From Tagaea sp. (GTDB lineage: Bacteria; Pseudomonadota; Alphaproteobacteria; CACIAM-22H2), in the NCBI GenBank assembly GCA_044224405.1, contig JBGAKN010000001.1, positions 416,973 through 480,972 on the forward strand: DNA of 64,000 nt, written 5' to 3'. The position numbers and the translations under genes were made by a program. Position 1 is the stretch's first letter; every line of letters starts with the position of its first letter. Below the pieces are notes generated by a model. It worked only from the letters and a program-made list of their open reading frames with translations, was not told the DNA's origin and ran no database searches. Below are positions 40,264 through 43,719 of this stretch, piece by piece.

Positions 40264-41757
40264 ATGAAGACCCTCGGCCATTTCATCGCCGGCAAGGCGA
40301 CGCCCGGCACCTCGGGCCGCACCGCGCCCGTGTTCAATCCCGCGACCGGCGAGCAGCAGGCTTCCGTGGCGCTGGCCAGTGCCGCGGAAGTGAACGCGGC
40401 CGTCGCCAATGCCGCCGCCGCTTATGAAGGCTGGTCGGCGACGCCGCCGCTGCTGCGCGCACGCGTGCTGTTCAAGTTCAAGGAACTGCTGGAGAAGCGC
40501 CGCGACGACATCGCGAAGCTCATCACCGCCGAACACGGCAAGACCTTCGACGACGCCAAGGGCGAACTGGTGCGCGGGCTCGAGGTCGTCGAGTTCGCCT
40601 GCGGCATCCCGCACCTGCTGAAAGGCGAGTTCACCGAAAACGTGGGCCGCAACATCGACTCGTTCTCGGTGCGCCAGTCGCTGGGCGTCGTCGCCGGCAT
40701 CACGCCGTTCAACTTCCCCGTCATGGTGCCGATGTGGATGTTCCCCGTCGCCATCGCGTGCGGCAACAGCTTCATCCTGAAGCCGTCGGAGAAGGACCCG
40801 AGCCCCGGCCTGCTGCTGGCCGAGATCGCGCTCGAGGCGGGCCTGCCGCCCGGCGTGCTCAACGTGGTCAACGGCGACAAGGAAGCCGTCGACACGATCC
40901 TCAACCACCCGAAGATCCAGGCCGTCAGCTTCGTCGGCTCCACGCCCATCGGCGAGTACGTCTACAAGACGGGTGCCGCCGCCGGAAAGCGCGTGCAGGC
41001 GCTGTGCGGGGCGAAGAACCACATGGTCATCATGCCCGACGCCGACATGGACCAGGCGACGGACGCGCTGATGGGGGCGGGCTACGGCTCGGCCGGCGAG
41101 CGCTGCATGGCGATCTCGGTCGCCGTCGCGGTCGGCAAGGCGGGCGATGCGCTGATGGAACGCCTCGTGCCGAAGGTGCAGGCGCTGAAAGTCGGCCCCG
41201 GCATGGACCCGGCCAGCGAGATGGGCCCGCTCGTCACCAAGGAACATCTCGCCAAGGTGAAGGGCTATGTCGATATCGGCGTGAAGGAGGGCGCGAAGCT
41301 CGCGGTCGACGGGCGCGGCCTGAAGCTGCAGGGCTACGAGGGCGGCTACTTCATCGGCGGCACGCTGTTCGACAACGTGACGCCCGACATGCGCATCTAC
41401 AAGGAAGAGATCTTCGGCCCCGTGCTGTCGGTCGTGCGCGCGAAGAACTTCGACGAGGCGATCAAGCTGGTCAACGACCACGAATACGGCAACGGCACCG
41501 CGATCTACACGCGCGACGGCGACAGCGCGCGCACCTTCCAGCAGAACGTGCAGGCCGGCATGGTCGGCATCAACGTGCCGATCCCGGTGCCGATGGCCTT
41601 CCACAGCTTCGGCGGTTGGAAGCGCTCGATCTTCGGCGACCGCAACGCCTACGGGCCGGAAGGCGTCGGCTTCTACACGAAGCTCAAGACCACGACGGCG
41701 CGGTGGCCGACGGGGCTGCGCGCGGGCGCCGAGTTCGTGATGCCGACGATGAAGTGA
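40264..41757 (+). CDS. mmsA: Methylmalonate-semialdehyde dehydrogenase (CoA-acylating)
   Basis: ALDH superfamily with catalytic ..GERCMAISV.. and MmsA-typical N-terminus MKTLGHFIAGK; 497 aa. Confidence 0.9.
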   Translation: MKTLGHFIAGKATPGTSGRTAPVFNPATGEQQASVALASAAEVNAAVANAAAAYEGWSATPPLLRARVLFKFKELLEKRRDDIAKLITAEHGKTFDDAKGELVRGLEVVEFACGIPHLLKGEFTENVGRNIDSFSVRQSLGVVAGITPFNFPVMVPMWMFPVAIACGNSFILKPSEKDPSPGLLLAEIALEAGLPPGVLNVVNGDKEAVDTILNHPKIQAVSFVGSTPIGEYVYKTGAAAGKRVQALCGAKNHMVIMPDADMDQATDALMGAGYGSAGERCMAISVAVAVGKAGDALMERLVPKVQALKVGPGMDPASEMGPLVTKEHLAKVKGYVDIGVKEGAKLAVDGRGLKLQGYEGGYFIGGTLFDNVTPDMRIYKEEIFGPVLSVVRAKNFDEAIKLVNDHEYGNGTAIYTRDGDSARTFQQNVQAGMVGINVPIPVPMAFHSFGGWKRSIFGDRNAYGPEGVGFYTKLKTTTARWPTGLRAGAEFVMPTMK

Positions 41758-41764
41758 CGCGAAT

Positions 41765-41904
41765 ACCCCTCACCCCGCAACGTATACGTTGCGCCTCTCC
41801 CGCAAGGGGAGAGGGGACTCCAGTCTTAGGTACGCGCGCACTGCGTGTCCGCTTCAACGGTATGATTCCCTCTCCCCTTGCGGGAGAGGGTTAGGGTGAG
41901 GGGG
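41765..41904. repeat. Composite palindromic MITE/REP-like element, copy A
   Basis: Outer inverted repeats CCCCTCACCC / GGGTGAGGGGG enclosing three hairpins: CGCAACGTA-TACGTTGCG, CCTCTCCC-GCAA-GGGGAGAGG and CCCTCTCCCC-TTGC-GGGAGAGGG; right arm supplies the last codons of the EamA gene. Confidence 0.6.
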
Positions 41905-42745
41905 CTTTTGCCCGCTTCGCCGCAATCGCCAGCCCCACGCCGCCCAGAATGAACACGCTCGCGACCGCGAGCCTTAGCGTCATCGTCTCCCCGAGCAGCA
42001 CGATCCCGCCGAAGGCGGCGAGCATCGGTACGGTGAGCTGCACGGTGGCGCTTTGCGTGGTCGTGAGGCCGGGCAAGGCGCGATACCAGATCACGTAGCC
42101 GAGGCCCGAGGTGACGGCGCCCGAGAAGATCGCGAGGGCGAGGCCGTGCGTGTCGGCGTGGCCGCCCATCATTGGCGTGGCGGCGAAGGGCAGGCACAGC
42201 AGGGCGGCGCGCACGAAATTTCCGGCGGTGGCGTCGAGCGGGTTGCCCGCACCTCGTCCGCGTAACGAGTAAACGCCCCAGCCGATGCCGGCCGCGATCA
42301 TCAGCAGGCTTCCCAGCAGGTCCGGCGCCTCCAGGCCCGGCAGCAGCAGCCACACGAACGCGGCGAAGGCGATGGCGAGGCCGGCGAGTTCCGTTCGCGT
42401 CGGCCGATCGGCGCGGAGAATTCCCCACAGCACCATCGTGCCCTGCACCGACGCGAACAGGATCACCGCACCCGTGGCCGCGCCCAGCCGCCGGTAGGCG
42501 AGCGAGAAGGCGAGCGCGTAGACGAGCAGGGATGCGGCCGATGCCCAGCTTCCCGGCTTTGCGCGCACGATGTCGGTCCGCCGTTGCGCCGCGAGCAGCA
42601 ATGCGAGCGCCACGGCGCCCGACACGATGCGGATCGACGTGAAGCTCAGTACGTCGATGCCGCCGCCCGCCATCGCGGCGCGCGCGAGCAGCGAATTGGC
42701 GGCGAAGGCGAGCATCGCGATGCAGGTCAGCAGCAACGTGGGCAA
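41891..42745 (-). CDS. EamA/DMT-family transporter
   Basis: Ten TM helices, two EamA repeats; start uncertain: GTG 42758, TTG 42745 preceded by AGGAGA, or ATG 42715. Confidence 0.7.
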   Translation of the reverse strand: MPTLLLTCIAMLAFAANSLLARAAMAGGGIDVLSFTSIRIVSGAVALALLLAAQRRTDIVRAKPGSWASAASLLVYALAFSLAYRRLGAATGAVILFASVQGTMVLWGILRADRPTRTELAGLAIAFAAFVWLLLPGLEAPDLLGSLLMIAAGIGWGVYSLRGRGAGNPLDATAGNFVRAALLCLPFAATPMMGGHADTHGLALAIFSGAVTSGLGYVIWYRALPGLTTTQSATVQLTVPMLAAFGGIVLLGETMTLRLAVASVFILGGVGLAIAAKRAKAPSP

Positions 42746-42754
42746 TTGAGTTCT

Positions 42755-42855
42755 CCTCACCCTTACCCTAGCCCTCTCCCGCTAGCGGGAGAGGGGACAA
42801 GATCGGTGCATACCATCCCCTCTCCCCTCCGGGGAGAGGGCAAGGGTGAGGGGGG
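42755..42855. repeat. Composite palindromic MITE/REP-like element, copy B, same orientation as copy A
   Basis: CCTCACCC ... CCCTCTCCCGC-TA-GCGGGAGAGGG ... CCCCTCTCCCC-TCC-GGGGAGAGGG ... GGGTGAGGGGGG. Confidence 0.6.
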
Positions 42856-42924: not shown

Positions 42925-43719
42925 ATGACCGCACCCAAGCCCGGCCCCGTCACGCTTGTCACCGGCGCTTGTGGCGGGATCGGTTCGGCCATTGTCGAGA
43001 AGCTGGCCGTGTCGGGGCACCGGCTGGTGCTGAACGGGCTGGATGCGGCGAAGCTCGACGCGCAGGTGAAGGCGCTGGCGGCAGCGGGGCACGAAGGCGT
43101 GGCGCTGGCGGGCGACGTGTGCGACCGCGCGCTGCCCGGCAAGCTCCGCGATCTCGCGGTTTCCACATTCGGCGGCATCGACGGGCTGGTCAGCGGGGCG
43201 GGCACGTCGCGCCCGGTCGCCTTCGTCGACATGGACGATGCGGAATGGGACCGGCTCGTGGACATCAATCTTTCGTCGGTCGCGCGCATCGCGCGGGCAG
43301 TGGCCAAGCAGATGCTGGCGCAGAAGCGCGGCGGGGCGATCGTGCATATCTCGTCGATCTCGCATGCCAATGGCGGGGCCAATCTCGCCTACGGTTCGGC
43401 CAAGGGTGCGGTCGCCACGCTCACCTACGGCATGGCGGCGCAGCTCGGCCCCCACGGCATCCGCGTCAATGCGGTCGCCCCCGGCGTGATCGACACGCCC
43501 CTGGTGCGCGGCGCGTTCGAGGCGAACTTCAACGCGCTGGTCGCCGGCGCTTCGGCGCGCACGCCCTTGCGGCGCATCGGCCGGCCGCAGGACGTGGCGG
43601 AAGTGGTGGCGTTCCTGCTGTCGGATGCCGCCGCGTTCGTCACGGGCGCGCTGGTGCCGATCACCGGCGGGATCGAGTTCCTCGCGCCGATCTCGGCGCT
43701 ACACGAGGGCGCGCGCTGA
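42925..43719 (+). CDS. SDR-family short-chain dehydrogenase/reductase
   Basis: TGACGGIG cofactor motif, catalytic YGSAK; RBS GGAGG. Confidence 0.85.
   Translation: MTAPKPGPVTLVTGACGGIGSAIVEKLAVSGHRLVLNGLDAAKLDAQVKALAAAGHEGVALAGDVCDRALPGKLRDLAVSTFGGIDGLVSGAGTSRPVAFVDMDDAEWDRLVDINLSSVARIARAVAKQMLAQKRGGAIVHISSISHANGGANLAYGSAKGAVATLTYGMAAQLGPHGIRVNAVAPGVIDTPLVRGAFEANFNALVAGASARTPLRRIGRPQDVAEVVAFLLSDAAAFVTGALVPITGGIEFLAPISALHEGAR

Follow-up and report, generated by a model that had tools for sequence, protein, structure and literature searches.

Two inverted BoxC/PIT/TM-ECO doublets beside a resident EamA gene in an alphaproteobacterial genome, probable relatives of DUF559 cassettes

We analyzed a 64-kb stretch of DNA from Tagaea sp. 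(contig JBGAKN010000001.1, positions 416,973 to 480,972; G+C content 67.8%; hereafter the window), in which two palindromic elements, A (41765–41904) and B (42753–42855), flank a gene encoding an EamA/DMT transporter. The two elements are inverted doublets of the repeat known as BoxC, PIT element or TM-ECO, present as passengers at a resident EamA gene; they are probably related to cassettes that carry a DUF559 endonuclease gene, and were probably spread by repair or recombination. The repeat family is already known and the locus is an ordinary new instance of it. The locus itself carries little weight: a known repeat has shaped the last codons of a transporter gene and also occurs in a promoter gap. 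What makes the follow-up worthwhile is mainly the association of the repeat with DUF559 genes, and also a hairpin-in-loop subclass that is missed by the published pattern.

Architecture of elements A and B

Each element is a pair of inverted units built as CCCTCTCCC-loop-GGGAGAGGG-loop-GGGTGAGGG, in which a 9-nt pyrimidine arm (CCCTCTCCC) is followed by a loop of 5–6 nt, a complementary purine arm (GGGAGAGGG), a second loop and a third, near-identical purine segment (GGGTGAGGG). The full unit pattern was observed four times in the window (0.00 expected) and the hairpin CCCTCTCCC-N3-8-GGGAGAGGG three times (0.00 expected), and blastn-short found no further copies of the units in the 64 kb. A preliminary description, made from the letters alone, had reported two composite palindromic elements precisely flanking the EamA gene, and both were confirmed at the positions it gave. 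The third segments point outward in A as well as in B (a 'tail-out' arrangement), which is what the preliminary description had recognized as outer inverted repeats. Its statement that the two copies share the same orientation has little meaning for such near-palindromes, as B aligns to A both ways (86% and 89%).

Element A, which belongs to neither strand, is a tail-out doublet between the convergent mmsA and EamA genes. Its left unit (41766–41815, minus strand) reads CCTCTCCC-CTTGC-GGGAGAGG, followed by an 18-nt hairpin as loop 2 and by GGGTGAGGGG; the pattern matches at 41768–41814 and our triplex finder (see below) also detects the unit. On the forward strand the outer arm CCCCTCACCCC (41766–41776) runs into the palindrome CGCAACGTATACGTTGCG (41776–41793, strandless) and then into the hairpin CCTCTCCC-GCAAG-GGGAGAGG (41794–41814). 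The perfect 18-bp palindrome of the preliminary description is real, occupies loop 2 of the mmsA-proximal unit, and is lineage-specific. After a spacer of about 52 nt follows the right unit (41868–41904, plus strand), consisting of the hairpin CCCTCTCCC-CTTGC-GGGAGAGGG (41868–41890), TTA and GGGTGAGGGGG (41894–41904), which is exactly a TM-ECO of type A (Table 1 of PMC4666352).

Element B, likewise strandless, is a tail-out doublet in the divergent intergenic gap between EamA and a short-chain dehydrogenase (SDR) gene, and was found in this lineage only. Its left unit (42753–42796, minus strand) reads CCCTCTCCC-GCTAGC-GGGAGAGGG-CTAGGGTAA-GGGTGAGGAG with an aberrant loop 2 of 9 nt; the outer arm CTCCTCACCC lies at 42753–42762, followed by TTACCCTAG and by the hairpin at 42772–42795. 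The spacer between the hairpins is about 21 nt. The right unit (42818–42855, plus strand) reads CCCTCTCCC-CTCCG-GGGAGAGGG-CAA-GGGTGAGGGGGG, with the hairpin at 42818–42840, then CAA, then GGGTGAGGGGGG at 42844–42855. Both units of B were detected by the pattern scan and by the triplex finder.

We computed the folding of both elements and found that each folds as one long hairpin on either strand, with RNA folding energies of –96.9 and –92.5 kcal/mol for A (z = –9.6 and –10.1) and –75.5 and –70.2 kcal/mol for B (z = –6.5 and –5.3); DNA parameters gave the same picture as RNA for these Watson–Crick folds. Both elements lie between genes, and their overlap with coding sequence is confined to the end of EamA in A. 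There the third segment encodes A-P-S-P (GCC CCC TCA CCC), and the stop codon TAA (41891–41893) is the complement of the TTA that forms loop 2 of the right unit. The earlier claim that A supplies the 3' end of EamA is therefore correct as to the stop codon, with three to four codons rather than the five proposed. Terminal inverted repeats, as in a MITE (miniature inverted-repeat transposable element), are present, and no direct repeats of the kind left by target-site duplication are visible at the outer flanks of A and B. Short-read contigs from the window's organism and a relative (L001, L002 and L127) begin or end in or at the edge of the elements (window 41874 and 42750), as is expected where a multi-copy repeat breaks assemblies. 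The organism is otherwise represented by a fragmented metagenome-assembled genome (MAG; GCA_035901005.1) and one Logan assembly, and one contig starts inside A.

Identity with BoxC, PIT and TM-ECO

The TM-ECO pattern is CCCTCNCCC-N3-6-GGGNGAGGG-N3-GGGNGAGGG (Holder et al. 2015, PMC4666352), and the repeat is the BoxC of Bergler (1992), which was re-described as the PIT element by Hoyne and Maher (2000) (PMC4666352). The right units of A and B match this pattern exactly, and the left units differ from it in loop 2 only (18 and 9 nt). When placed antiparallel on the purine arm, the third segment yields no triplets other than G*G-C, A*A-T and T*A-T, which is the purine-motif (class II) rule. All four units passed a computed generic class II triplex test, for which we used our own script requiring a perfect 8-nt hairpin and allowing at most one triplet mismatch. 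The BoxC hairpin has also been described as a switch between G-quadruplex and hairpin (PMC5100583).

Escherichia coli K-12 harbors 23 TM-ECO copies, all intergenic, ten of which form five inverted pairs (PMC4666352). The window units share with them the 9-mers, the loop lengths, the order of the three segments, the class II purine motif, the essentially intergenic placement, and the occurrence of single units or inverted pairs; E. coli doublets have the same architecture and length as A and B. Of 5426 complete E. coli genomes, 5316 contained matches to element B, nearly all on the chromosome, and B aligned over 94% of its length with 75% identity to a tail-out doublet between wzc and wcaA. The RefSeq annotation of K-12 holds no BoxC feature, and in Rfam no family scored above threshold for A or B, with weak chance matches to microRNA and snoRNA models only.

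The window copies nevertheless differ from the E. coli repeat in several respects. The host is a high-GC proteobacterium, with best EamA matches in alphaproteobacteria, and not an enterobacterium. In K-12, a single strain, inverted pairs always join a type A (TTA) to a type B (CCG) loop 2 (PMC4666352), whereas the window pairs combine TTA with an 18-nt hairpin and CAA with CTAGGGTAA, and thus do not follow the TTA/CCG rule. Two of the four window units have a long loop 2 (the 9-nt loop and the 18-nt hairpin) and are missed by the published N3 pattern, and the C-terminus of EamA is encoded by one of the outer arms. A further description of the repeat concerns Enterobacter sp. 638, in which '100 palindromic repeats' of the form CCCTCTCCCXX(X)GGGAGAGGG were presumed to be terminators (PMC2869309). 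The hairpin is identical to ours and is often duplicated or triplicated at gene 3' ends; however, that paper describes the hairpin only, and neither the third segment nor the link to BoxC is noted there.

Distribution of the repeat

The preliminary description had taken the elements for members of a dispersed repeat family, and this proved to be the case. An exact-pattern scan with 24 specified bases, using one genome per species, found the unit in at least 120 stretches from many phyla; by a rough estimate, fewer than about 5 matches are expected by chance in the whole collection. Among the matches listed were isolates of Pseudomonas, Acinetobacter, Xanthomonas, Azospirillum, Bradyrhizobium, Sphingomonas, Geomonas, Nostoc and Leptolyngbya, together with MAGs labelled Chloroflexi, Planctomycetes, Acidobacteria, Verrucomicrobia, Bifidobacterium and others, such labels on MAGs being sometimes wrong.

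These loci contained 166 units, with a loop 1 of 3–6 nt and a loop 2 that was mostly of the canonical 3 nt. Pairs accounted for 77 of the 166 units, in 19 tail-out (as in A and B), 16 tail-in and 5 direct arrangements. Nineteen units, from other phyla, had a loop 2 of 13–20 nt, and all 19 contained a small hairpin of their own within it (stem of at least 4 bp). The 18-bp palindrome of A therefore belongs to a recurrent hairpin-in-loop subclass that the published N3 pattern misses. We also considered phages and plasmids as vectors of the repeat, which the data do not support: 3 of 50,697 phage records carried it, and plasmid matches were mainly to megaplasmids and chromids.

History of the locus in relatives

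We compared the locus with those of relatives (labelled L125, L126 and L128 to L130) by EamA identity to the window copy and by synteny. All of them lack B and keep the SDR gene adjacent to EamA. In L125 and L126 (EamA identity 87%), a doublet with the hairpin loops of A abuts the mmsA stop codon, has the standard TTA as loop 2 and lacks the 18-bp palindrome, in place of which L125 carries the standard GTTA. In L128 (84%), the doublet lies between EamA and a gene fragment with an mmsA-like end, and EamA terminates inside it (...RRPSP-stop); the element directly abuts the mmsA stop in L128 as it does in L125. L129 and L130 (89%) retain a half-element only. More distant relatives (67–73%) have the same wider neighborhood, with a GMC oxidoreductase gene upstream and SnoaL and mmsA downstream, but no element at the A site and no B.

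These comparisons show that A is ancestral to the group, had already captured the end of EamA (...PSP-stop), and was kept and partly rewritten in related lineages, and that B was gained separately and more recently in the promoter gap between EamA and the SDR gene. Because A is common to L125 and L128 and B occurs in the window lineage only, the two were independent events. We conclude that two features, the 18-bp palindrome and one extra TATTCGCG, are confined to the window lineage.

The preliminary description had suggested that the elements mobilized EamA, as the two ends of a composite transposon would. In favor of this, two related doublets lie within 8 nt of the EamA start and over its stop codon. 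However, EamA keeps its SDR neighbor in relatives without B, and the wider neighborhood is kept in the 67–73% relatives without either element; EamA stays in the same neighborhood whether it is accompanied by A alone, by half of A or by no element at all. In addition, A and B arrived at different times, in several lineages the EamA reading frame includes the outer arm of A, and the outer flanks lack direct repeats. A composite transposon is accordingly very improbable, and EamA is a resident gene, not a cargo, and was not mobilized by A or B.

Compared with the nearest relative lacking B, the window shows a 67-nt replacement and not a clean insertion, and the EamA-proximal end of B (...CTAGGGTAAGGGTGAGGAGAAC) resembles the ancestral sequence at that point (CTAGGGTGA... 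in L129 and CTAGGGTGG in L128), which hints at an entry through microhomology. The Shine–Dalgarno sequence of EamA predates B, since AGGAGAAC stands at the equivalent position in L129, which lacks B. The A-site doublet of L128 (6928–7013) has a short spacer and carries the loops of window B (CGGAG; GCTTGC/GCTAGC), not those of window A. The pattern points to an exchange between dispersed copies, through replacement or gene conversion, in which copies at one site may be overwritten from others.

The A junction itself differs among relatives. In L125 (6837–7790; GCA_016195065.1), genes for an ArsR-type helix-turn-helix protein and an AHSA1 protein (about 1 kb) are inserted between the body of EamA and the A-site doublet; a remnant of about 30 nt of the original EamA 3' end (...AAGCGGCACCCCTCACCCTAA) is still joined to the doublet, and EamA has acquired a new C-terminus. 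In L129 (1573–3963; a contig of JGI 3300060284), the EamA/mmsA junction is heavily rearranged. In this locus and in L130, an intact EamA with a different C-terminus is followed by an unrelated palindromic doublet (GTCATGCCCGGGCTTAACCCGGGCATCCAC ... GGATTCCCGGCTCAAGCCCGGCCATGAC) and then by a duplicated mmsA 3' remnant and about 1.85 kb of inserted genes; next comes a 72-codon duplicate of the EamA 3' end, which terminates as ...KVPSP-stop in the half-element, and a 94-codon open reading frame (ORF) takes the place of the other half.

Possible effects on gene expression

We further considered the possibility that the elements act as cis-regulatory RNA, with A as a bidirectional transcript-end or 3'-stabilizing hairpin for mmsA and EamA, and B as a 5' structure that sequesters the EamA Shine–Dalgarno sequence; such a role can coexist with a passenger origin. 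The whole-element hairpins are very stable on both strands of both elements, A lies between convergent genes and is retained at this junction in three lineages, and a terminator role was presumed for the same palindromes in Enterobacter sp. 638 (PMC2869309). For B, the plus-strand fold pairs the complement of the Shine–Dalgarno sequence, and the EamA-sense fold places AGGAG at the edge of the outer stem. However, no run of T follows the hairpins of A or B, a terminator scan reported no site at either element, and a consensus scan found no sigma-70-like promoter at A or B. In E. coli, the tests summarized in PMC4666352 gave neither promoter nor terminator activity for PIT elements, and the repeat stands at variable distances from genes of all classes (PMC4666352). 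Moreover, close relatives with an intact EamA gene and Shine–Dalgarno sequence lack B.

Given the missing T-runs, terminator and promoter matches, and since the tests in E. coli were negative, the elements are unlikely to have a strong role in regulation, and regulation is an improbable explanation for their presence. They may nevertheless modestly affect how stable 3' ends are at the convergent junction, or the translation of EamA. A and B would act mainly through their structure as long hairpins or cruciforms, A at a convergent gene end and B in a 5' region. Their influence on transcript ends would be modest at most, and they would make the junction prone to rearrangement.

Association of the repeat with DUF559 genes

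In Sinorhizobium meliloti, a tail-out doublet lies directly upstream of a gene for a 134-aa 'endonuclease domain-containing protein', and we accordingly examined whether units are associated with DUF559 genes. A tblastn search over 120 loci selected for the repeat found four DUF559 genes, all four of which were bracketed by units; in one of these loci (L055), the units on either side of the gene are perfect inverted copies of each other down to their loops. The DUF559 gene was found within tail-in pairs as well as within tail-out pairs.

To approach the association from the protein side, we collected 15 DUF559 loci by tblastn of E. coli YcjD against plasmids and chromids, a biased collection. 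These contained 25 class II triplex motifs in 19.7 kb, distributed over 11 of the 15 loci, compared with none in 150 kb of control sequence, the controls being few (three 50-kb stretches from three of the same replicons), and with 6 in 142 kb of EamA-related loci. The finder is blind to stems shorter than 8 nt, so that Pseudanabaena and Picosynechococcus score zero in test loci and control alike. Around DUF559 the sequence of the unit varies with lineage and its architecture is kept: the pyrimidine arm, purine arm and third segment are CCCCTCCC, GGGAGGGG and GGGGAGGG in Sphingomonas, CCTCCCCC, GGGGGAGG and GGGAGGGG in Deinococcus, and CCCCCC, GGGGGG and GGGGGG in Pseudanabaena and Picosynechococcus.

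Units are also found translated within DUF559 proteins. A strict pattern for translated units (for example, PSPLPLSHPGEG or PSPEWERGRGEG) had matches in 35 of 120 close homologues of DUF559, in 38 of 146 representatives of DUF559 clusters collected with a query that lacks the signature, and in none of 120 EamA homologues; it replaced a loose pattern that was non-specific, matching 55 of the 120 EamA controls. One DUF559 protein (P0129) has both units translated.

Several individual loci deserve mention. In a betaproteobacterial MAG (CAVPKE010000004.1; L021, 1774–4515, minus strand), a DUF559 cassette with its flanking units lies in frame and free of stop codons inside methionyl-tRNA synthetase. 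The 913-aa ORF comprises tRNA-synt_1g (26–428), an anticodon domain (486–586), DUF559 (671–780) and tRNA_bind (818–910), which places the cassette between the anticodon-binding domain and the C-terminal tRNA-binding domain. Elsewhere, DUF559 occurs within an FGE-sulfatase domain (P0380), twice in an Eco57I-like methylase with repeated PSP..GEG stretches (P0242), as three tandem copies (P0241), and after a RecQ C-terminal region (P0350). P0228 represents one locus seen in many samples and says nothing on mobility. Around another DUF559 gene (L154, 985–1010 and 1425–1550), the hairpin arms carry a compensated change (CCCTCTGCC...GGCAGAGG), and in a unit downstream, loop 2 contains a hairpin (TGGCGCGGAGCGCCG) and the third segment is GATGAGGG.

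Escherichia coli has a DUF559 gene of its own, ycjD, which lies 168 nt from TM-ECO no. 9, the original BoxC beside fabI, and which in phylogroups A, B1 and C stands in lieu of the eefRABCD operon (PMC12817139). In K-12 (1351204–1351760), a partial unit is seen at the 3' end of ycjD, with a duplicated ycjD 3' fragment nearby. YcjD matches PDB 3HRL, and DUF559 has been grouped with the Vsr fold (PMC3424549). Vsr-fold nucleases are known as selfish homing enzymes, including in in-frame contexts, from the I-Bth0305I family (PMC3239194, PMC2677866). DUF559 is classed with this fold; such homing endonucleases, however, sit in group I introns, inteins and split-intein loci, whereas DUF559 cassettes are bounded by triplex-motif repeats with no splicing element evident. 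We found no literature linking DUF559, YcjD or Vsr-like genes to BoxC, subscription literature being outside the search.

On this basis, the window units may be non-autonomous relatives of small cassettes in which similar units bracket a gene for a DUF559 endonuclease (Vsr-like, PD-(D/E)xK). Spread and homogenization of the units would then proceed by endonuclease-initiated repair or recombination between copies, not by classical transposition. The unit–DUF559–unit cassettes of other genomes would be the autonomous relatives with the same ends that a MITE calls for, with a candidate enzyme and putative mobility. A wider proposal, which we put forward tentatively and rate at slightly below an even chance, is that BoxC-type units and their variants (CCCCTCCC-, CCTCCCCC- and CCCCCC-type) are boundary or recognition sequences of pan-bacterial selfish DUF559 cassettes, of which E. 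coli YcjD would be a member and A and B non-autonomous remnants. The hairpin- or triplex-prone unit would be the substrate of the endonuclease, and either the unit or the whole cassette would be copied during repair.

If true, this proposal would account for the identity of the repeat across phyla, for its instability at individual loci, and for insertions that lie in frame and free of stop codons in host genes. BoxC, catalogued since 1992, is still without a known function, a known route of spread, or an explanation of why almost identical stretches of 35 nt turn up from E. coli to cyanobacteria, Chloroflexi and Planctomycetes. A link with DUF559, a very large uncharacterized family (21,616 clusters at 50% identity), would supply a candidate enzyme for a 30-year-old orphan repeat, testable directly in E. 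coli K-12, and would flag thousands of 'PSP...GEG' protein extensions as translated repeats.

Several observations weigh against relating A and B to such cassettes, or against parts of that account. A tblastn search found no DUF559 gene in the window, so that A and B would have to be non-autonomous copies, and their central spacers gave only chance matches of 11–16 nt, with no trace of a deleted gene. The link between DUF559 and the repeat is a correlation from modest samples, and no nuclease activity on these repeats is known. Among 60 evenly spaced E. coli genomes, the median number of further repeat places was 17 with ycjD and 5 without it (Mann–Whitney test, p = 3e-9), a contrast that favors the link but is confounded by phylogeny and in which the distributions overlap, genomes without ycjD having up to 18 copies. 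That the repeat is multi-copy in the window's organism is inferred from the four units in 64 kb and the contig breaks. No empty B site close enough to define the insertion boundaries was found; a metagenome scan gave only EamA relatives of at most 58% identity, which had no full unit and, in one case (L131), a solitary 9-mer. In vitro, the isolated TM-ECO strand adopts a triplex, but none was seen in duplex DNA or in vivo (PMC4666352); the negative promoter and terminator tests on E. coli PIT elements, as that paper summarizes them, count here as well.

The triplex or G-quadruplex structure might instead itself serve the host, for example by promoting local genome variability, with no dedicated protein involved (Holder et al.). 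The units conform to the triplex rules, rearrangement among strains is more extensive at TM-ECO loci than at control loci (PMC4666352), and the A junction was rearranged differently in each relative, with the ArsR–AHSA1 insertion in L125, the 1.85-kb insertion, partial duplications and ORF within the element in L129, and the loop-2 palindrome in the window. However, three rearranged relatives amount to an anecdote without a control locus, and the triplex is the structure that escaped detection in duplex DNA and in vivo. Any purine mirror repeat would form a triplex, which leaves unexplained both the recurrence of the same 9-mers across phyla and the variants that track DUF559. We regard a host-serving structure as unlikely.

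Repetitive extragenic palindromic (REP) sequences are species-specific and bracket a gene for a Y1 transposase. REP doublets (REPINs), which are moved in trans by an IS200/IS605-like tyrosine transposase (RAYT), are similar to A and B in architecture: two inverted short palindromic units with a spacer form one long hairpin. REP sequences, REPINs and bacterial interspersed mosaic elements (BIMEs) are also alike in being short, GC-rich, palindromic and extragenic, and in having non-autonomous copies that far outnumber the linked gene. By contrast, whereas REP families are confined to a species or genus, the present unit is near-identical across many phyla and has a third, triplex-type segment, and the bracketed gene that was found encodes a DUF559 PD-(D/E)xK nuclease and not a Y1 transposase, no search for a RAYT gene having been made in the window. 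In E. coli, BoxC is catalogued as a class separate from REP and BIME (PMC4666352). It is thus very doubtful that A and B are REPINs.

The in-frame translation seen in DUF559-bearing genes and at the EamA C-terminus has a parallel elsewhere. Rickettsia palindromic elements can sit in frame in protein-coding genes and be translated, as are the window arm and the DUF559 cassettes in methionyl-tRNA synthetase and FGE-sulfatase; their sequence is unrelated and their host range restricted, and to our knowledge no nuclease gene is associated with them.

Genes at the locus

The EamA gene (284 aa, TTG start; 41891–42745, minus strand) was identified by the gene call in L001, the Pfam EamA domain, homologues and synteny. 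In the identical contig the gene caller places the start at TTG 42745, 8 nt outside B, in agreement with the N-termini of homologues. The Shine–Dalgarno sequence AGGAGA (42752–42757, minus strand) overlaps the outer end of B. The preliminary description had stated that B overlaps the start of EamA and possibly its ribosome-binding site; this holds for the latter, and of the possible starts only GTG 42760, which opens the longest EamA ORF, lies inside B. The sole terminator-like consensus match in the region (41957–41972, minus strand) falls within the EamA coding sequence and is probably due to chance (1 found, 0.6 expected). On one side of EamA, the mmsA-like aldehyde dehydrogenase gene (40264–41757, plus strand) ends with its stop codon 8 nt before A; on the other, the SDR gene (42925–43719, plus strand), divergent from EamA, lies 69 nt downstream of B.

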